Notes: generated by a model from the letters alone, not told the origin. 27,484 bases of DNA from an uncultured Alphaproteobacteria bacterium (GCA_964442815.1 CAYUAL010000001.1:1-27484); one strand, 5' to 3'. Shown: positions 10,310 to 24,591, counted from the stretch's first letter. Made by a program: numbers and translations.

Positions 10310-10472
10310 CTGTTTTTATCTCCATAAAAATATGTTTATAATTAGGTACGTACTCTAATGGGATTTCCCCCAACAGGTCAATATCCTTTATGTTTGTTAC
10401 TTTATGAACCTTGCAAAAGCATATAATTATTTTTACAATTAAAATAAAATATATTTTATAAAGGACCTAAAA

Positions 10473-10850
10473 ATGAACAAACTAATCTCTTTCTTAATAT
10501 GTTTTTTGAGCAGTATTATGATAGGCAACATATCTGCCTATGCGTCTTTGGACCCATTGCTCTCTCTTAACGATAACACTGGCTTAGAAGTTCTTACGAA
10601 AGAAGGCGCACAGCAAGTTAAATCAGGATCTCTTATTGATAATATTGTTGATGAAATATATAAATGGGGAAATGGGAGCAGAGAAAATATTGAGCGAACA
10701 AAAACTGCTCAAAATAAAACTACCATGGAACCAGGCTGGGATACAGTACGTTCTGGACAGATGCAACCGGACGAATTTAAACGCCTTATACGAAAAAAAC
10801 TAGAAGAGAAACTTTCTAATCTTCCTATACCTCAGGCAAACTCAAAGTAA
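10473..10850 (+). CDS. Small exported hypothetical protein
   Basis: 125 aa. AAGGA RBS upstream; MNK-hydrophobic-AYA signal peptide; no recognisable domain. Confidence 0.75.
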   Translation: MNKLISFLICFLSSIMIGNISAYASLDPLLSLNDNTGLEVLTKEGAQQVKSGSLIDNIVDEIYKWGNGSRENIERTKTAQNKTTMEPGWDTVRSGQMQPDEFKRLIRKKLEEKLSNLPIPQANSK

Positions 10851-10876
10851 TATAGGCTTCTCATGCTGGTCTTATA

Positions 10877-11224
10877 TTAAACAAGGTTATTCCCTTGTTT
10901 CTTTTGAAATGCCTCAAGAAGCTCCTGAACTGTGCTGATTTCTTTAAGCCCAAGACCTATACCCTGTTGGATCAGGAGGTCTTTTTTTCCTTTGGGAATA
11001 AAGGCCATTTTGAAACCTAGTTTCTGAGCTTCTTTGAGGCGGATTTCTTCTCCATAAACCATACGAATATCACCGGAGAGTCCAACTTCTCCTAAGAATA
11101 CCGTATCTAAAGGAAGGGGCTTATTATGGCATGCTGATAGGATAGCTACGACCACCGCTAAATCAGCAGCAGGCTCCGTAACCTTTAAGCCCCCTGCCAC
11201 ACTCACATATACACCTTTATTAGA
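10877..11224 (-). pseudogene. radA: Second, diverged copy of the radA 3' end (open frame; could be translated as 109 aa from GTG 11206)
   Basis: Reads SNKGVYVSVAGGLKVTEPAADLAV...GEVGLSGDIR...EAQKLGF, nearly identical to RadA at 13054..14436, but lacks the Zn finger, ATPase domain and first part of the Lon-like domain. Confidence 0.85.
10901..11224. repeat. Direct repeat copy A (partner 13060..13386)
   Basis: Hand alignment of 10979-11218 vs 13141-13380 gives 23 differences in 240 nt (about 90% identity), with identical tracts of 56 and 49 nt. Confidence 0.95.
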
Positions 11225-12860
11225 ATTTGTCTAAAAACTTTGTAAAATCTATTGGACGTAAAATATCAAACTCACCTTTTCTTAGGACAGAGTCATACCC
11301 CATATTAGATGGTTGAGGTTTTACTTCTTGGGCATTAGGGTTTCGAAGATAGGCTATAGCGGATCCCTCAAAGTGAAGTCCTAAGTCAAAATTTCCCCTA
11401 ATAAAGTTTATATCAGGCCATTGGGGTTCTTGGTCTCTATAAGCGGGGTCTTGAAGCGCAATAGAGGATTTCATGTGCATTACAAGTTCTTCTACTGGGG
11501 TATGTCTACTATTGGTATTTTCATATCCTCGTGCCCAAGAAAATCCTACTGATTCTCTTATGTTTGATCCTCTTATGTTTGGGTCACGAGTTTGCATATC
11601 TGCAAATACATGAAAATAAGTATCTAATAGACTTCTATTAGGGGTATGTCTTATATGACTTTGGAGGCACTCTAAAATAGGAAGTATAAGTGTACGTCGT
11701 GATTCTTCTAAGGAACCAGCAATACGCTCAAGATCCCATTCTAGTATTTTTTCTCTAGCCCTGGTGCTAAATGGGTAAAGACCTTGTCGCAGGCGTATAG
11801 CTAAGGGTGCTGTTATATACAAGGTGGAATCGTATAGGTATAGCCTTTCATAATCTATAGAGCTAACTTCTAATAAGGTTCCATCAGAGGATAAATGCAT
11901 AACCCCGTTACGCCATTGGTTATCGCCAGAAAGCGTCATAAAAAAAGCTATTAAATCATCTTCTACGGTATCTTGACTAAAACAACTCAAGCCATAATTT
12001 CTTTCATCTTCTGTAATTAAAGGGAGAATAGAAATTCTTTTTTTCTTATTGTTAATACTGTAGCCTTCTAATACACGTGTAAGGTCTTGCAAGCGTTCAA
12101 GGTCTGGTAGGCGTATGGCCTCTTCCAGAAGATGTCCATATTCTTGCTCATCCTCTTCTTTCATATCAACCCACTTTGTGGTGTGTGAGCAAGACCAAAG
12201 AGCCAATGCTGGAAGGGCTCCATGAGGATGAGGCATCTTATTTAAAATGGTAGTAAGAGGCGTTTGTATTGTAGGGTCGTGTGGGTTAAGAATTACTACA
12301 GGTTGAACAATTCCATAAAAATTTCTTACTTCATACCCATCGGACGTTTGGTAAGTTAGAGGTAAGTTCCTAACAACATAACCAGGAGCTAATGTTTTAC
12401 CAAATCCAGCCTCCTTAAGAGAAGCTGATGCTTGCACAAAGCTGTCTGCTATATAAGTATTTCTCTCATACAGTCCATTTGACTCAAGTGCAGCTCGGAA
12501 TCTAAGTGGTGTTTGATTGAAATCACTTGCCTCTTCTTCGCTGAGTTTCCATTTTGGGTCATACCCTTGTTTTAAAACAGCAATGGTCCGGTCTCCCTCT
12601 TGTACTGTAATCATAGGCGTAGTGTCACCGTACATAGAAGCAGCAGCTTGAATGGGATTATGTTGAGAAGCTTGAATTACGCGAGCTAAAAAAGCCTTTT
12701 CTTCTCCAGAATCCCCAGCATAAGCAGATGAACTCCCAGCAGAAGGATCAAAGGCCCAAGCTAAAGAAATAGACATTCCAATAGGAATACCTATGATCAG
12801 TGCAATAATTAATTTCTTTATAAAGTCTGGGAAAATCTGATTAACCATATTTTTTTTCAT
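11220..12860 (-). CDS. Exported hypothetical protein with putative atypical (PI3/PI4-kinase-like) kinase domain
   Basis: 546 aa. Signal peptide ending SLAWA-F. Ordered motifs IAVLK97, YE132RNTYIAD, YGIVQ186, D313NQWRN318 and SID336YE match the spacing of PI4K type II/HipA-like kinases (VFK, E..AY.LD, GS.Q, DRH..N, IDHG). Kinase call is from motif reading only. Confidence 0.55.
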   Translation of the reverse strand: MKKNMVNQIFPDFIKKLIIALIIGIPIGMSISLAWAFDPSAGSSSAYAGDSGEEKAFLARVIQASQHNPIQAAASMYGDTTPMITVQEGDRTIAVLKQGYDPKWKLSEEEASDFNQTPLRFRAALESNGLYERNTYIADSFVQASASLKEAGFGKTLAPGYVVRNLPLTYQTSDGYEVRNFYGIVQPVVILNPHDPTIQTPLTTILNKMPHPHGALPALALWSCSHTTKWVDMKEEDEQEYGHLLEEAIRLPDLERLQDLTRVLEGYSINNKKKRISILPLITEDERNYGLSCFSQDTVEDDLIAFFMTLSGDNQWRNGVMHLSSDGTLLEVSSIDYERLYLYDSTLYITAPLAIRLRQGLYPFSTRAREKILEWDLERIAGSLEESRRTLILPILECLQSHIRHTPNRSLLDTYFHVFADMQTRDPNIRGSNIRESVGFSWARGYENTNSRHTPVEELVMHMKSSIALQDPAYRDQEPQWPDINFIRGNFDLGLHFEGSAIAYLRNPNAQEVKPQPSNMGYDSVLRKGEFDILRPIDFTKFLDKF

Positions 12861-13053
12861 AAATGATGCCTCAAAATTAATAATGCATAATTTTCTTACT
12901 CTTGTTATATAAGAATGCTTTTTAAGAATATCAAGAGCTGGCTTTAAAAAAATTTAAACAGATATGAGACTAAGAAAGAGTGAGAGAACCCAAAAAGGGG
13001 TTAGTTCTACAACTATCTCTCGAAATGTTTGAGTATAAATAGAGAAAAAAATC

Positions 13054-14436
13054 TTAGTGCTTTTGAAATAATCCAAGAAGCTGCTCTTGAACCGTACTTA
13101 ACTCTCTAAGCTCTAACCCAACGCTCTGTTGAATCAGAAGGTCTTTTTTTCCTTTGGGAATAAAGGCTGTTTTGAAACCTAGTTTCTGAGCTTCTTTGAG
13201 GCGGATTTCTTCTCCATAGACCATACGGATGTCACCAGAGAGTCCAACTTCTCCTAAGAATACCGTATCTAAAGGAAGGGGCTTATTATGGCAGGCTGAT
13301 AGAATAGCAGCTACAACGGCTAGATCTGCTGCAGGCTCCGTAACCTTTAAGCCCCCAGCAACGCTGACATAGACATCCTTATTGGAAAAAGTGTAGCCAC
13401 ATCGTGCCTCTAAAACAGCCAAAAGCATGGCCAAACGCCCATAGTCCCAACCTACTGTCGTCCGCCGGGGCGTCCCATATGGAATGGAAGTTACCAGAGC
13501 TTGAATTTCCATTAAAAGAGGTCGTGTACCCTCCAAACTTGCAAAAATACTAATCCCACTAACAGGTGCCCGATCATGCGCTGGGAGAAAAAGCCCTGAG
13601 GGGTTTGTTACTTCTTGCAAGCCACGCTCTGTCATTTCAAAAACGCCAATTTCATTAGCTGGGCCAAAACGATTCTTTACAGAGCGCAAAATACGATAGG
13701 GATGTCCGCGTTCCCCCTCAAAATACAAAACCGCATCTACCATATGCTCCAAAACCTTAGGACCGGCAATAGCTCCTTCTTTGGTTACATGTCCTATGAG
13801 AAAAACTGTAATTTCCTTTTGCTTGGCAGCTTGAATAATCTCATGTACAGACGTGCGCACCTGCGTCACTGTACCTGGTGCCGCCTCAATTCCTTCTACA
13901 TACAATGTTTGTACTGAGTCAATAACAAGATAAGAAGGAACTTTATCTCCTTCCAAAAGTGTTAATATCTCTTGTACTTGGGTAGCCGTTGCTAACGCTA
14001 AAGGACCTTCTTTAACCCCCAATCTTTCCGCACGCAAACGGATCTGGGCTCGGCCTTCTTCGCCGGATACATACACACAGTCTGCCAATCGAGATAAACG
14101 ATCTGCAATTTGCAGCATAATCGTGGATTTTCCAATGCCAGGATCCCCTCCTATGAGGATAATAGATCCGGCTACCAGCCCTCCCCCTACAACTTGGTCA
14201 AATTCTTTACACCCTGTTAGTGTACGAATGGGACTTTCTTCCTTAGCGGCTAAAGGGACGACTTCAAGAGTTTTATGAGCGTACCCCTTCCCTTTCTTCT
14301 GGAAAGAGAATCTATCCTTTGTGGTTACTTCTTCTTCTAAGCTATTCCAAGCTCCACAACCAGTGCACTTCCCCGTCCATTTAGGGTGAACAGTACCACA
14401 CGCTTGGCACACATACTGATGAATAACTTTGCTCAT
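13054..14436 (-). CDS. radA: DNA repair protein RadA/Sms
   Basis: CQAC..CTGC Zn finger, GGDPGIGKST Walker A, VIDSVQT, KNRFG motif, Lon-like C-terminal domain. Confidence 0.98.
   Translation of the reverse strand: MSKVIHQYVCQACGTVHPKWTGKCTGCGAWNSLEEEVTTKDRFSFQKKGKGYAHKTLEVVPLAAKEESPIRTLTGCKEFDQVVGGGLVAGSIILIGGDPGIGKSTIMLQIADRLSRLADCVYVSGEEGRAQIRLRAERLGVKEGPLALATATQVQEILTLLEGDKVPSYLVIDSVQTLYVEGIEAAPGTVTQVRTSVHEIIQAAKQKEITVFLIGHVTKEGAIAGPKVLEHMVDAVLYFEGERGHPYRILRSVKNRFGPANEIGVFEMTERGLQEVTNPSGLFLPAHDRAPVSGISIFASLEGTRPLLMEIQALVTSIPYGTPRRTTVGWDYGRLAMLLAVLEARCGYTFSNKDVYVSVAGGLKVTEPAADLAVVAAILSACHNKPLPLDTVFLGEVGLSGDIRMVYGEEIRLKEAQKLGFKTAFIPKGKKDLLIQQSVGLELRELSTVQEQLLGLFQKH
13060..13386. repeat. Direct repeat copy B (3' end of intact radA)
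   Basis: Aligns to 10901..11224 with one 3-nt indel near the stop. Confidence 0.95.
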
Positions 14437-18403: not shown

Positions 18404-19051
18404 TCAAGGGTAAATTTTTTCTTCTATATTGCGATAATAAGCACATACGCTAGATACAGGACATATATTACATAACGGCTTTATGGCTTTGCAAGTGTAA
18501 CGTCCATGGAGAATAAGAAGATGATGTGCTGAGTGTAAATAAGCTTTAGGTACATTCTTTTCAAGTTTTTGTTCTACCTCTAACGGTGTTTTTCCAGGTG
18601 CAAGCCCTGTCCGATTAGATACGCGAAAAATATGCGTATCCACAGGAATGGTCGGCTGATTAAAAGCTACATTCAGAACGACATTGGCTGTCTTACGCCC
18701 TACTCCAGGAAGTTCCATAAGTTCTTCTCGAGTACCTGGAATTTTCCCACCAAATTTTTCTATTAAAATTTGGCTCAATTTAATAATGTTTTTAGCTTTC
18801 GTATGATAGAGGCCTATGGTTTTAATGGCATTCTTTAAATTCTCTTCTCCTAACCCAAGCATTTCTTGTGGCGTTTGGATCTTCTCAAAAAGTGGCTTTG
18901 TAGCTTTGTTAACGCCTTTATCCGTACTTTGGGCAGATAAGACAACTGCCACCAAAAGAGTATAAGGATTGGTATATTGCAATTCCGTAGCAACATTTGG
19001 AATAGTAGCCGCTAATGTTTTAAAGAAGAACTCTCTATCTTGAGGTGTCAT
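18404..19051 (-). CDS. nth: Endonuclease III
   Basis: LLVAVVLSAQSTD, HhH LPGVGRKTANVVL, VDTHIFRV, C-x6-C-x2-C-x5-C [4Fe-4S] cluster. Confidence 0.97.
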   Translation of the reverse strand: MTPQDREFFFKTLAATIPNVATELQYTNPYTLLVAVVLSAQSTDKGVNKATKPLFEKIQTPQEMLGLGEENLKNAIKTIGLYHTKAKNIIKLSQILIEKFGGKIPGTREELMELPGVGRKTANVVLNVAFNQPTIPVDTHIFRVSNRTGLAPGKTPLEVEQKLEKNVPKAYLHSAHHLLILHGRYTCKAIKPLCNICPVSSVCAYYRNIEEKIYP

Positions 19052-19063
19052 GGGACTCCTTTT

Positions 19064-21730
19064 TTACATAAAAGTATAAGAGAATCCTTCGTCTCCATGC
19101 GTATCTAAAGAGATATGAACGCTTTTGTATTCTGTTCCTTCTATCATACGCTCTAGGATTTGGCTTGAAAGTCCCGGAAGAAGGTTTTGTGTCAGAATGG
19201 TATCAATGGCACGAGCCCCACTTTCGACTTCCTCACACCGTTCTGTAATGGCAGATACCACGTTCTCATCAAAAGTTAAGGTAGCACGATGTGTCTCAAA
19301 AAAGCGTCGTTGAATCTTTTGTAATTTCAATTTAACAATCTGAGAAATATAACCTTCTCCCAAAGGATGGTAAGGTACGACAACTAACCGTCCCAAAAAA
19401 GCAGGCTTAAAGACTTTTACTAAGTCAGGTCGCAAAGCTTCTAAAAGCTTTTCAGCGGTTGGGACAGGTTCGTCTTCTTTATCTAACAAAGACATAAGAA
19501 TTTCGGATCCCACATTAGAAGTTAGGAGAATAACTGTATTTTTAAAGTCGACTTCTATCCCTTCTGAATCTTCTAAAACACCCTTATCAAAGACTTGATA
19601 AAATAACTCTAAGACATCCGCATGGGCTTTCTCAATTTCGTCCAAGAGAACAACGCTATAAGGATTACGCCGCACAGCTTCTGTCAACACACCGCCTTGC
19701 CCAAATCCCACATAACCAGGAGGGGACCCCTTCAAGGTAGAAACTGTATAAGCTTCCTGATACTCTGACATGTTAATTGTTATAAGTGCTTTCTCTCCCC
19801 CATAAAGAATATCGGCCAATGCATGCGCTGTCTCTGTCTTACCTACACCGCTGGGGCCAACAAGAAGAAAAACTCCTATAGGCTTTCCTGGTTCATCTAA
19901 TCCAGCTTTATATGTCCTCAAACGTCGTGCAATTGTATCCAGAGCATGAGATTGTCCCACGATACGGTTCTCAAGTTCTTTTTTAAGACCTAAAACTGTT
20001 TGGATTTCATCTTTGACCATCTTGCCAAGCGGAATACCGGTCCAAGAAGAAATGACATGCGCTACAACATCTGCTGTCACTCGCTGCGGAACAAGTGTCC
20101 CTTCTTTCAGTCCATTTTCTTTTTCTTTAAAAGTTTGTCGGAGTACCTCAAGATTTTTTTCGAGTCTTTTTAGAACTTCTTTCTTATCTCTAGAATCAGT
20201 TTCTGGGTTTTGCTCGAGTTCTTTTTCTAAAGAACAAATTTGCTCTACATACTTTTTCTCTTGATCCCATTGTTGTTCCATGAGGTCTTTTTGAACCTGG
20301 ATCTTCGAAATATCCTCTTGGATTTTTTGAAGACGTTCTGCATGAGACGCTCCTAAAGTCTCTTCTCGCAAAAGAACTTTTTTCTCTATCTCAAGAGCCT
20401 GCTCCTGGTAGTTTAGCGCTTCTAAAGCTTCAGGAATAGAATTATGAGCTACAGCTACACGGGCACATGCTGTATCTAAAACACTTACAGCTTTATCCGG
20501 CAACTTGCGACCGGCTAAGTACCTGTTAGAAATCTTAACAGCGGATTCTAATGCTTCTTCCTCAATGCGTACTTTGTGATGAGCTTCTAGTTTCTTAAGC
20601 AAGCCACGCAACATAAGGATTGCTTTTTCCTCATCAGGTTCTTCTACTTTTACAACCTGAAACCGTCGAGAAAGAGCTGCATCTTTTTCAAAATACTTTT
20701 TATATTCAGCCCAAGTAGTAGCTGCGATCGTCCTTAGTTCTCCACGAGCAAGAGCTGGTTTAAGCAAGTTAGCCGCGTCGTTTTGCCCTCCGCTACTTCC
20801 ACTACCGATTAGTGTATGGGCTTCATCAATAAAAAGGATGATAGGCGTGGGAGAAGCCTGTACTTCCGAAATAACTGACTTAAGCCGCTGCTCAAACTCT
20901 CCTTTTAAGCCAGCTCCCGCTTCTAAAAGACCTACATCTAAAGAGCGAATAGATACATTCTGCAGAGGAGGAGGAACATCACCTGCAGCTATTTTAAGTG
21001 CTAACCCTTCCACCCCAGCTGTTTTTACAACACCAGCAACTACCGGAAGAATAGGGTTATTTTGGCGTCGCCGCATAAGAATATCAATGATCTGGCGGAT
21101 TTCTCCTTCACGCCCTGTCACAGGATCAATTTTTCCGCTGCGTGCTGCTTCTGTTAAATCTTGCGTATAGAGGTCTAAAGCCTCTGTTTTATAAGATCCC
21201 GTTTTCTTTTTTGATTCTCCAGATGGAAAAGATACTTGATCTCTTGTCGGTCCTTCTTCTTCTCCGCTATTTTGTAAAATATTAGATAATTCCTGGCGCA
21301 AGACAAGACGCGGAATGGTAAGTAAAATAGGACAAGAATCTATTAGGACCCCTTTAAGCCCTTCGGCCTCTAAAAGAGCCAACAGAATTGCCGAAGATCG
21401 TATTTTAGAAGACTCTAAAGTTAAGGAAGTGATAATCCAAGCTTCTTCTATAAGTTTTAAAAGAAGCGGCGAAAAGGCTGGTGTCCTGCTATTTCCTCTT
21501 TTAAATTTATCTATTGCTTCGCTTAACTGCTGAGCAAGCACTAAGCCGTCTACATTAAAAGCTTTTAAACTAACCGCCCAATCTCCATCTAAATTGTCAT
21601 TTATCTTAACAAGAAAATGTTCTATCTCCACTGTAAAATGCGTAAGAGATACACAATACTGTGCAGCCTCTTCTAAAGCTTTACGCAAAAGTGGATTTAA
21701 TTTTGTAATAAGATTTTTTGTATCTGTCAT
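19064..21730 (-). CDS. tssH: Type VI secretion ATPase TssH/ClpV (first Walker A degenerate as read)
   Basis: ClpV-type N-domain (ALEEAAQYC..LTHFTVEIEH), RRRQNNPIL, FIDEAHTL, KPALARGELRTIAATTW.EY, second AAA LVGPSGVGKTETA and DEIEKAH; follows tssF-tssG. Confidence 0.92.
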   Translation of the reverse strand: MTDTKNLITKLNPLLRKALEEAAQYCVSLTHFTVEIEHFLVKINDNLDGDWAVSLKAFNVDGLVLAQQLSEAIDKFKRGNSRTPAFSPLLLKLIEEAWIITSLTLESSKIRSSAILLALLEAEGLKGVLIDSCPILLTIPRLVLRQELSNILQNSGEEEGPTRDQVSFPSGESKKKTGSYKTEALDLYTQDLTEAARSGKIDPVTGREGEIRQIIDILMRRRQNNPILPVVAGVVKTAGVEGLALKIAAGDVPPPLQNVSIRSLDVGLLEAGAGLKGEFEQRLKSVISEVQASPTPIILFIDEAHTLIGSGSSGGQNDAANLLKPALARGELRTIAATTWAEYKKYFEKDAALSRRFQVVKVEEPDEEKAILMLRGLLKKLEAHHKVRIEEEALESAVKISNRYLAGRKLPDKAVSVLDTACARVAVAHNSIPEALEALNYQEQALEIEKKVLLREETLGASHAERLQKIQEDISKIQVQKDLMEQQWDQEKKYVEQICSLEKELEQNPETDSRDKKEVLKRLEKNLEVLRQTFKEKENGLKEGTLVPQRVTADVVAHVISSWTGIPLGKMVKDEIQTVLGLKKELENRIVGQSHALDTIARRLRTYKAGLDEPGKPIGVFLLVGPSGVGKTETAHALADILYGGEKALITINMSEYQEAYTVSTLKGSPPGYVGFGQGGVLTEAVRRNPYSVVLLDEIEKAHADVLELFYQVFDKGVLEDSEGIEVDFKNTVILLTSNVGSEILMSLLDKEDEPVPTAEKLLEALRPDLVKVFKPAFLGRLVVVPYHPLGEGYISQIVKLKLQKIQRRFFETHRATLTFDENVVSAITERCEEVESGARAIDTILTQNLLPGLSSQILERMIEGTEYKSVHISLDTHGDEGFSYTFM

Positions 21731-21757
21731 TTTTAGATTACAACCTCAAGCTGCTCT

Positions 21758-22792
21758 TTATGCAAAACTATCTTCAAGAGAAGGATGAATATAAACTTGT
21801 CGTGCGTCTTGTAAAAAAGGTTTTGTCTTTAGCCATGTGCGCCAACCTAAGAAACTATCTTGCCCAAGAACCAAAGAAGGAACCTCTTCTTTTTTTAAAA
21901 TAAGATTAAGATCAAATGTTATAGAATCTTCCGTATAAAAAGTAATAAGGTCACAAACCTTTTTATAAGATTCCTGATTCCTAAAAAAATTACAAAAATA
22001 CGTTAAACCCATAGGACCAAGAGAAGCCGTAATATGTCCTACTTTATCCCATGCTTTGGTTCCAAGAATGCAATCCTTTCCAAGAACATTAAATTGCCCC
22101 TTTTGCGTACCAATCAGACTACATTCTTCTTTTTGGATAGAAAGCCATTTTCCTTGAAATTCATGAATCGTTACGGGTATTCTAAGGTACTTTTCTAATA
22201 AAAATTTTAGACCTATACTTGATCGAACGCGCGGCCATAAAAAACTTGCAAGCCCTAGAAGGCCCCTATCTGAAACCTTCAATTTATTTTGAAAAAGAGG
22301 ATTTTGAAAGCCAAGCCCCGTCAGAGCACGTAGCATTTCTCCTATGGTTGTTTTTTCCGCGGGTATTTCATAAATACCCATTCGGTGCCGTTTTCGTATT
22401 TTATGAAAAAGAGAAATAAATCGATGGTTAAAAATATCCAAAAAATCTCGAAAGGCTAAATCTTTTTTCTGGATTCTATCCACTAAAAGCTGTGTATAGG
22501 GTGTAGGCAAAGGACCTTGAATACCTGCAATTCCTAAAAAATTTACTTGCAATACATCAACTCTAGAAAAAGAAGAAGCTGGGAGAGTTTCCACTAAATC
22601 ACTAGGTGGAAAAGCAAATGAAACGCTTGCGCTAAATCGAACAGGTTCTTTTTCAGGATCTACCCCTTCCGCAGGAGCCACCGTGTCAGGATATAAGGAT
22701 TGGAAAACCCGAACTGCTTGCAAAAAGTCAAATACATAGGCTTTTTCAAAAAGTTTATCTTTTAAAGAGAGTTCTTTTCTTATATAAGCCAC
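21758..22792 (-). CDS. tssG: Type VI secretion baseplate subunit TssG
   Basis: FDFLQAVR, FLGIAGIQGPLPTPYT, FRDFLDIFNHR, LGTKAWD; overlaps the tssF stop by 13 nt. Confidence 0.9.
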   Translation of the reverse strand: MAYIRKELSLKDKLFEKAYVFDFLQAVRVFQSLYPDTVAPAEGVDPEKEPVRFSASVSFAFPPSDLVETLPASSFSRVDVLQVNFLGIAGIQGPLPTPYTQLLVDRIQKKDLAFRDFLDIFNHRFISLFHKIRKRHRMGIYEIPAEKTTIGEMLRALTGLGFQNPLFQNKLKVSDRGLLGLASFLWPRVRSSIGLKFLLEKYLRIPVTIHEFQGKWLSIQKEECSLIGTQKGQFNVLGKDCILGTKAWDKVGHITASLGPMGLTYFCNFFRNQESYKKVCDLITFYTEDSITFDLNLILKKEEVPSLVLGQDSFLGWRTWLKTKPFLQDARQVYIHPSLEDSFA

Positions 22793-24591
22793 GTTTCACC
22801 TGCCATAGGAGGCCATTTTTTCCAAATACCAGGCTTATTTGCTTTATATACAGTAAGCTGTGTGAAAGAATTAATAGAAGTATATAAACTGAAAAAATGA
22901 TTCAATACCATCGCAAAAAGTAAGGGGGGGGTGCCTCCATAATACCTATCATCAAACGTAAGTTCTAAAGATGTCCCGCGTGCAAAGTTTCTCCATGCTT
23001 CATTCCCTAACCTTTGAATATTATAAGAACAATTCATCTTCGTAATGGACTCAATCTCATTGGTCGTCTGAGGAGTACCTAACCCAGCATATAGGCGAAG
23101 AATACTCTTTAACGCATCTAAACTATAAGGCTCATTTGAAAGAGAAATACGATTTAAACAAAGCTGAGAAATAAGAGACCATAGCACGCCTCCTTCTTGT
23201 GGAGGATATAAAGGAGCTGCAGGCGTATTTAAACAAATAATACTAGAAGACGGCGTATCATTTTCTATCTCTAATATTGCTCCTGCTGGAATTTGCATGG
23301 CCAGATCTCTATTCGTACATAAAATATGTGCGTAAATTGTATCCACGCTAGGAACACTTGGATTAAAGTTAAAATCCACAAAGGAAAGATTTGTGTCCGT
23401 TCCCGGCATTCCTGGACGCACCGTAGGAATACGCCGAGCGATCCAAAAAAATTTTTGATCTTCTTGTTCTTCCTGATGCATAAACTCAAAATAGGGAGAG
23501 AGAGCTATGGGATCAGGAGTACTAGAATTAGTGGCATATACATCTGTTACCACATTAATTTCTGTTATCATTTCACGTCGCTGATCCGGCACAAGCCTAT
23601 ATTCTGTGCTTAATCCATCCAAACGAAAAGGCTCAGAAATCTTTTTAAAACTATTAATGATAGGAGAACACCCCAAAAGAAAAATATCTGGAGAAAAATC
23701 AATCCAAGAAAGACTCTCAGAATTAGAAACAGGAATAAAAATACTTAATTCTTTATCTGCTCCACTATTTTGAATTCCTAAAACATCAAAGAAGAAAAAT
23801 TTCTCAGGAAAACAAAAATACTCTAATAACAACACGTATGCTGGATGTACCTTTAATAGATGAGGCAAAAGGACTTCTTTTTGGCTTAATCCTACTGGTT
23901 TTAAAGAAGAAGGGCAGGTTTTTACATCCCTTGTTCCCCCTATAGCTACGCCAATATTCTCAGAAGAAGTAAAAATAGCTTCATATAATATATGCTGAAG
24001 GACATTCCCTCCATTTATAAAGAATCTTAACTGTGATAAATTTTCTAAGTCCTTAAAAGATCCTTGTAAAGGAGAGAGATCGATTTTTATGGCTTGGGGT
24101 TGATCCGTAAAAAATGTTGAAAAGCTATAATCTTCTACTGGAACTAAGGAAATATTTTCTATTTTTATAGGCCATAAATTTACATCGTATCCCGTTTGGA
24201 ATTGGCAGGTTACTCCCTCTGCTGTGCGTGCAAATAATGAAGTATGTTGTGGAATAACATATCCTGTTGTCGGAACACTTTTTTTCACATCAACTTGAAA
24301 TTGCGTAACGGCACACGAAGGAATAATATGCACAAACTGAGGATATAAAATGGATAACAAAGTCTGAGAAATACGGGGAAACTCTGCATCCATATCTCGC
24401 TGCAAAGTCCCAGATAAAAAAGCAAAAGACTCTAAAAGTCTCTCCACATGCGGGTCAGTACTTTCTCCTTGTCCAATATCGAGTCTCTTTGCTATTTTCG
24501 GATGTTTTTCAGCAAAAAGGCTCCCCATCTGGCGTAAATACGCCATTTCTCTTTGGTAATATGTTAATAACTTATCTTGTTCCCCAGCCAT
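22780..24591 (-). CDS. tssF: Type VI secretion baseplate subunit TssF
   Basis: YYQREMAYLR, DPHVERLLESFAFL, LLLEYFCFPEKFFF, LGCSPIINSF, CTNRDL, LNHFFSLYTSINSFTQL. Confidence 0.94.
   Translation of the reverse strand: MAGEQDKLLTYYQREMAYLRQMGSLFAEKHPKIAKRLDIGQGESTDPHVERLLESFAFLSGTLQRDMDAEFPRISQTLLSILYPQFVHIIPSCAVTQFQVDVKKSVPTTGYVIPQHTSLFARTAEGVTCQFQTGYDVNLWPIKIENISLVPVEDYSFSTFFTDQPQAIKIDLSPLQGSFKDLENLSQLRFFINGGNVLQHILYEAIFTSSENIGVAIGGTRDVKTCPSSLKPVGLSQKEVLLPHLLKVHPAYVLLLEYFCFPEKFFFFDVLGIQNSGADKELSIFIPVSNSESLSWIDFSPDIFLLGCSPIINSFKKISEPFRLDGLSTEYRLVPDQRREMITEINVVTDVYATNSSTPDPIALSPYFEFMHQEEQEDQKFFWIARRIPTVRPGMPGTDTNLSFVDFNFNPSVPSVDTIYAHILCTNRDLAMQIPAGAILEIENDTPSSSIICLNTPAAPLYPPQEGGVLWSLISQLCLNRISLSNEPYSLDALKSILRLYAGLGTPQTTNEIESITKMNCSYNIQRLGNEAWRNFARGTSLELTFDDRYYGGTPPLLFAMVLNHFFSLYTSINSFTQLTVYKANKPGIWKKWPPMAGETWLI

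Follow-up and report, generated by a model that had tools for sequence, protein, structure and literature searches.

Which kind of enzyme is encoded by the kinase-like gene in this window (the whole stretch of 27,484 nucleotides that was analysed, from an uncultured alphaproteobacterium), and where would that enzyme act? A reading of the sequence alone had proposed an exported atypical kinase, related to the phosphatidylinositol (PI) 3- and 4-kinases and directed at a host. The gene itself proved real. A 546-aa ORF is the longest frame at the locus in the ORF listing of the window, and a ribosome site precedes it.

11220..12860, (-) strand: whole kinase-like gene, encoding protein P0001 (546 aa plus stop; ORF list and translation)
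12869..12872, (-) strand: Shine-Dalgarno-like GAGG, 8 nt before the first ATG (read from the sequence)

Because of this upstream GAGG, the 546-aa start is favoured over the M5 start of the database copy, P0002. The gene is partly covered by contigs from the sequencing runs of three studies, with zero differences. Scanning positions 10400-13200 for promoters and terminators gave sites no more numerous than in shuffled sequence, and no RNA runs are among the sequencing runs listed as holding the DNA of P0001. The motifs quoted in the sequence-only reading all lie at the residues assigned to them (ASMYGDT, 74-80; IAVLK, with K97; YE132RNTYIAD; YGIVQ186; D313NQWRN318; I335D336YE), and the D-x4-N pattern occurs once in P0001, as D313-x4-N318. 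Taken singly, such motifs are common by chance; it is conservation that lifts them above chance.

The N-terminus of P0001 bears on where the protein would go.

12753..12860, (-) strand: Sec-type signal peptide, residues 1-36, with a Lys-rich n-region, the core LIIALIIGIPIG and the c-region AWA-FD (hydropathy and inspection)

Judged by inspection, the N-terminus reads MKKN..KK, LIIALIIGIPIGMSISL and AWA-FD, in the n/h/c layout of a Sec signal. The hydrophobic core is 17 residues long, and hydropathy found no further hydrophobic segment in the rest of the protein. The signal peptide that had been noticed earlier (..AWA-FDP) holds up across the family described below, with an equivalent N-terminus in all five members: each has the N-terminal hydrophobic core and no later hydrophobic stretch, and four of the five have small residues at -3 and -1. 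On this pattern, the N-terminus is read as a Sec-type signal, which would presumably be cleaved, although it may instead serve as an uncleaved signal anchor. A Sec signal places P0001 in the periplasm, not in the host, and classical injected effectors usually do not have Sec signals.

Sequence profiles gave no foothold for classifying the protein. P0001 had no match in Pfam or NCBIfam at E<=10. A Pfam scan of all five family members was equally empty at that threshold, so that the anticipated match to the PI3_PI4_kinase profile is missing in every one of them; that profile (PF00454) also found nothing at E<=1 in the whole source genome. Among PDB sequences, phmmer with P0001 and hmmsearch with both full-length and catalytic-segment profiles gave nothing relevant at E<=10. 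The sole PDB sequence match, the esterase YdiI (E 0.6-3), was dismissed as chance. An ESM Atlas feature search with P0001 reached a best score of 0.77, below the useful range.

Relatives are few. One was found in a word-indexed search of 5.8 billion proteins and four when 1.84 billion cluster representatives were searched exhaustively with phmmer, and profile searches, including one of the 5.8-billion-protein set, brought in no further family members. A back-translated pattern scan of metagenome contigs gave 186 pattern matches and no relatives, and the family profile matched nothing in seven other genomes of the order or in 400 genomes sampled from the class. The following four proteins make up the family with P0001.

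P0003: 503 aa, 53-59% identity
P0004: 457 aa, 38% identity
P0005: 452 aa, 36% identity
P0006: 386 aa, 34% identity

As far as these searches reach, the family appears restricted to one small alphaproteobacterial clade, uncultured and translocase-bearing. In the alignment of the five members, which share 27-57% identity, the invariant positions include V95, K97, G183, Q186, S311-G312-D313, R317-N318, I335-D336 and E338, together with P352, Y362-P363 and W375. E132 had been put forward as the partner of the lysine, and here the alignment disagrees: the residue is not invariant, being Q in P0006, the most distant member. The family is out of reach of sequence profiles and is tied to kinases through its predicted structure.

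A single-sequence AlphaFold model of P0001 had a pLDDT of 35. AlphaFold2 with the five-sequence alignment, signal peptides removed, gave a mean pLDDT of 66 and a pTM of 0.68. Confidence in this model is good for the N-lobe hairpins and C-lobe helices, whereas pLDDT stays below 50 in the catalytic and activation loops and the last ~50 residues are weak. Two regions can be delimited beyond the signal peptide.

11592..12713, (-) strand: predicted type II PI4-kinase-like catalytic domain (N-lobe, hinge, C-lobe), residues 50-423
11223..11591, (-) strand: C-terminal tail, residues 424-546, with a QDPAY..PQ.P motif in 4/5 members (alignment)

Structural comparison of the model, which had been suggested as a check of the kinase reading, bears that reading out: a bilobal kinase-like fold is predicted, and PI4KII-alpha (4hne; E 1.7e-3, probability 1.0) ranks first in Foldseek against the PDB. 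PI4KII-beta, VPS34 and choline kinase are among the next matches, and MavQ is far down the list. In a PDB structure comparison, scores of 11.3-12.0 go to all eight entries of PI4KII alpha/beta, against 6.5 for the one that follows; the PI4KII match spans both lobes, with 227-249 aligned residues, and stands ~5 Z units above the next fold. The TM-scores of the matches are low, at 0.3-0.45. Nearly all matches among AFDB clusters, Swiss-Prot models and ESM Atlas entries were PI4Ks of type II (plant PI4K-gamma, animal PI4K2A/B and yeast Lsb6), and five independent structure libraries agree on the type II PI4K fold. From the model, P0001 very probably has a PI4KII-like kinase fold. The helical C-terminal extension of ~200 aa described from the sequence was overstated, as the kinase-fold match continues to about residue 423 and the poorly modelled tail amounts to ~120 aa, with pLDDT below 50 at model residues 462-497.

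The predicted kinase is composed of several elements that can be compared with those of PI4KII-alpha.

12612..12641, (-) strand: probable phosphate-binding loop ASMYGDTTPM, residues 74-83, the likely counterpart of the PI4KII G-loop
12570..12578, (-) strand: putative ATP-binding lysine strand V95-L96-K97, a strand end in the model; V95 and K97 invariant
12294..12314, (-) strand: probable hinge GIVQPVV, residues 183-189, after a long N-lobe beta-hairpin; G183 and Q186 invariant
12069..12158, (-) strand: helical hairpin insertion, residues 235-264, two helices in the model, specific to P0001
11907..11930, (-) strand: predicted catalytic loop SGDNQWRN, residues 311-318; S311, G312, D313, R317 and N318 invariant
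11847..11858, (-) strand: IDYE, residues 335-338, predicted start of the activation loop with the metal/phosphate-binding Asp, the DFG equivalent; I335, D336 and E338 invariant

In PI4KII-alpha, V150 and I345 line the adenine pocket, K152 and D346 hold the alpha-phosphate, and a K152A mutant is inactive. Adenine is bound by Q261 and the backbone of L262 and V264 (262-264). [quoted passage not shown] The model of P0001 presents, in order, loop 74-82, the V95-x-K97 hairpin, a long helix, a long hairpin leading to G183..Q186-P-V-V, and then the C-lobe elements. Loop 74-83, modelled at low confidence, comes ahead of the beta-hairpin ending in K97. Between the loop and this lysine are 14-23 residues, comparable to the 16-22 residues between the PI4KII-alpha G-loop and K152; its TTP recurs in all family members but one, and P82 never varies. 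By order and local pattern, Q186 of the hinge would map onto Q261. Loop 311-318 is positioned between helix 296-309 and a beta-hairpin, as is the catalytic loop of PI4KII-alpha, and I335-D336 close the second strand of a short hairpin, with a disordered loop next.

Altogether, V95/K97, Q186, D313/N318 and I335/D336 match the nucleotide-site residues of PI4KII-alpha in order and in secondary-structure elements, and the model suggests that K97, Q186, D313, N318 and D336 converge on one pocket. Both the fold assignment and activity are best argued at this point, because conservation owes nothing to the model and yet the same positions emerge. The type II PI4K reading is thus backed by the predicted fold together with invariant residues in PI4KII order. 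Since K97, Q186, D313-x4-N318 and D336 are all invariant in the family, we read P0001 as an active phosphotransferase, and it is probably an active kinase.

The eukaryotic type II PI4Ks (human PI4KII-alpha/beta, yeast Lsb6 and plant PI4K-gamma; 4HNE, 4HND, 4PLA, 4WTV) share 12-16% identity with P0001, which differs from them in lacking a PF00454 match, in its Sec signal and in its bacterial origin. The cysteine-rich CCPCC palmitoylation motif that anchors PI4KII in the membrane (PMC3974213) is absent from P0001, which has three isolated Cys and no CC. The C-lobe insertion of PI4KII-alpha is replaced by a short turn, whereas P0001 has its own helical hairpin at 235-264; most of this hairpin is gapped in the other four members, and its structural matches are generic helical hairpins only. 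The ~120-residue tail with its QDPAY..PQ.P motif is a further difference. The fold is no guide to the substrate: plant members of the type II PI4K group phosphorylate proteins (PMC3741686, PMC12953816).

Other kinases are more distant. Helicobacter pylori CtkA (3AKJ/3AKK) and the Fam20/CotH kinases (5XOM, 5YH0, 4KQA, 5JDA), which are protein or glycan kinases, reach about half the structural scores of PI4KII and have no sequence or Pfam match with P0001. Legionella LepB (a PI 4-kinase), MavQ and AnkK/LegA5/OpiA (PI 3-kinases) and Rickettsia Risk1 embody the same biological idea, as intracellular bacteria make their own kinase-fold enzymes to rewrite host phosphoinositides (PMC9758233, PMC12607708). 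The HipA/HipT toxin kinases have a D-x4-N catalytic loop and a downstream Asp in common with P0001. The N-to-D spacing of HipA is 18, equal to that of P0001, and P0001 has neither a HipA_C profile match nor a HipA fold. LepB, MavQ, OpiA and Risk1 are other kinase-fold families, delivered by type IV or type VI systems. Of the likenesses drawn earlier, that to PI4KII stands, that to HipA is only distant and that to LepB appears distant as well; the reading is best narrowed to a PI4K type II-like enzyme rather than a HipA- or LepB-like one. More broadly, P0001 would be grouped with the secreted atypical kinases of host-associated bacteria.

The assembly that represents the organism totals 1.54 Mb over 216 contigs. 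No GTDB species representative has a RadA more than 54% identical to the one encoded there, the best matches being alphaproteobacterial MAGs. Two TLC ATP/ADP translocases (577-643 bits) are encoded, and none of 14 control genomes matches the TLC profile. The source DNA occurs in runs from several studies, which are metagenomes of wastewater and sludge. An intracellular lifestyle is indicated by the two translocases, the 1.5-Mb genome and the occurrence in wastewater and sludge, and the carrier is most likely an energy-parasitic intracellular bacterium, probably of a protist. As to secretion, two secretin genes are present, and a pseudopilin gene comes after one of them; these secretins may belong to pili. 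The genome also has a T6SS sheath gene (TssC, contig C168) and a HipA toxin kinase; with the two translocases, these genes outside the window are placed on contigs C168, C171, C32 and C28. VirB4 had no match in the genome, which is 96% complete, and the absence of type IV secretion is thus not proven. A link of the kinase to the T6SS genes of the window (tssF/G/H, 18404-24591) was considered and dropped, as these lie more than 5 kb away with unrelated genes between. T6SS cargo normally carries no Sec signals.

Within the window, the kinase gene is flanked on both sides by radA sequence.

13054..14436, (-) strand: complete radA, directly upstream of the kinase gene (Pfam: RadA zinc ribbon, ATPase and Lon/ChlI-like C-terminal domain)
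10877..11206, (-) strand: duplicated radA 3' fragment, directly downstream, with 87% mean column identity to the 3' end of radA

The last ~330 bases of radA are present twice (10877-11206 and within 13054-13400), with a nearly identical central block, and the copies bracket the kinase gene. The downstream radA-like stretch starts inside the kinase gene, in its final codons, and an integrase is absent between the two copies. Contigs from public runs bridge both radA/kinase junctions (X1, 11102-11327 and 12899-13133; X4, from another study, 12940-13124), and the arrangement is therefore no assembly artefact of the contig. The G+C content of the kinase region (0.38-0.40) is like that of the genome (0.385). 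Past the radA fragment, and convergent with the kinase gene, is a 125-aa ORF (10473-10850, (+) strand) with a signal-peptide-like N-terminus and no Pfam match.

The other family members have different neighbours. The contig that carries P0003 is short and has no radA. P0004 is flanked by a dicarboxylate symporter and an LppC-like gene; the organism is distant, its neighbour genes being 47-53% identical to those of the source genome. P0005 lies between prmC and prfA in a same-genus organism, whose neighbour genes are 83-98% identical. P0006, an intact copy from another metagenome, lies between a HIT gene and hslVU. A second family copy of ~386 aa in the source genome, likewise placed between a HIT gene and hslVU (C69:1-750 (-) and C61:3-404 (+); loci L004 and L002) is split over two contig ends just before the IDxE motif; because it matches P0006, at 94-97% identity, the source genome carries two paralogs. 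The prmC-prfA interval is a variable site: it holds a kinase-family member in the same-genus species (L014, 4613-5971), and in the source genome (locus L102, contig C87, 2255-4147) an unrelated 630-aa repeat protein and no family member. The 630-aa protein has coiled-coil-like stretches and Ala/Ser-rich tandem repeats, and an AAA-type ATPase gene comes after it. The patchy occurrence and differing housekeeping neighbourhoods indicate that the kinase family behaves as accessory cargo at variable sites.

On balance, we lean towards an exported PI4KII-fold kinase that acts on a host molecule after release. Guided by its N-terminal signal, P0001 would cross the inner membrane through the Sec system. 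Mature P0001, beginning near residue 37, would contain the bilobal core (50-423), in which K97 and D336 would hold ATP and metal, Q186 would bind adenine and D313-x4-N318 would form the catalytic loop. After P0001 leaves the periplasm, a host molecule would be phosphorylated, the candidate targets being phosphatidylinositol, converted to PI4P on a membrane around or near the bacterium, or a host protein. The gene, its conservation, the predicted fold and the genomic setting rest on what was observed; we infer catalytic activity, signal cleavage, release beyond the outer membrane and substrate, and the step from periplasm to host is the weak link of this explanation. That P0001 acts on the host at all is a fairly open call, tilting slightly towards the negative, and phosphatidylinositol is a doubtful substrate.

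A rival to be taken seriously is a periplasmic or envelope kinase that would modify the bacterium's own envelope lipids, glycans or proteins, using host ATP on its way to the translocases. The Sec signal, present in 5/5 members, is the only targeting feature, the genome does encode two TLC translocases, and host ATP must cross the periplasm because the translocases sit in the inner membrane. However, housekeeping genes (mur operon, FKBP) surround both TLC genes, neither a kinase nor a phosphatase adjoins them, the five kinase-family loci have no phosphatase or transporter neighbour, and the patchy, accessory distribution fits an interaction factor better. We consider an envelope role unlikely, and it is somewhat less likely still that the kinase runs in the periplasm on host ATP bound for the inner-membrane ATP/ADP translocases. 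The bacterial periplasm is usually regarded as ATP-free, and such a kinase, if real, would be a case of ATP-driven phosphorylation in that compartment. The chemistry may also differ from that of a kinase, as in a pseudokinase, a scaffold, or an enzyme of AMPylation (SelO) or glutamylation (SidJ). SGDNQWRN and IDYE depart from DRH/DFG and from the PI3K consensus, model confidence is low in the catalytic and activation loops, and E132 varies; moreover, other chemistries are on record for effectors with a kinase fold (bioRxiv 10.1101/2021.04.13.439722). Nevertheless, across 27-57% identity the lysine, the two aspartates and the asparagine never vary, matching the pattern seen in active type II PI4Ks, and no family member has lost catalytic residues. 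The pseudokinase option raised by the sequence-only reading is accordingly less likely than an active kinase, and some other or no chemistry on a kinase fold is improbable overall.

Finally, the kinase likeness could itself be an artefact, a shallow alignment having drawn AlphaFold to a familiar fold and P0001 being an unrelated secreted protein. The alignment holds five sequences only, the mean pLDDT of 66 falls to 35 with a single sequence, the TM-scores are below 0.5 and no kinase profile lends support. Yet the model-independent conservation picks out the positions assigned to the ATP site and catalytic loop, and the match is specific to one subfamily, covering both lobes with a gap of ~5 Z units and concurrence of the five libraries. 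A modelling artefact is very unlikely because the match is subfamily-specific and the conservation signal is independent of the model.

P0001 and its relatives would represent a Sec-signal family that shares its fold with the type II PI 4-kinase of the host itself, unlike the LepB, MavQ, OpiA and Risk1 families. If active on PI, P0001 would be a bacterial mimic of the enzyme making PI4P at the Golgi and endosomes; action on proteins, or within the periplasm, would extend the concept of extracytoplasmic phosphorylation to bacteria. Much effector-like enzymology in protist symbionts may be reachable through structure prediction only.

Two further bacterial proteins were compared with the family profile by hhalign, a VPS34-like PI3K (locus L100) and a weak PF00454 match (L101), with a probability of 0.1 for each; the non-significant alignment with the latter sets the D-x4-N and ID motifs in register (D313 loop against DRHLNN). 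The L100 protein (496-2283, (+) strand; 595 aa) comes from genome G423, a 2.8-Mb single contig of the same phylum. It matches PI3_PI4_kinase with 146 bits, has the motifs GIGDRHLEN and HIDFG, and looks like a VPS34-like lipid kinase of effector-like character. The kinase-like L101 protein (1090-1893, (+) strand; 267 aa; genome G436) has the motifs NPDRHLNN and IDYSRAF. Its gene overlaps the end of an upstream 239-aa ORF, by eye an XRE/LexA-type repressor, and this pairing suggests a phage or toxin-antitoxin module.
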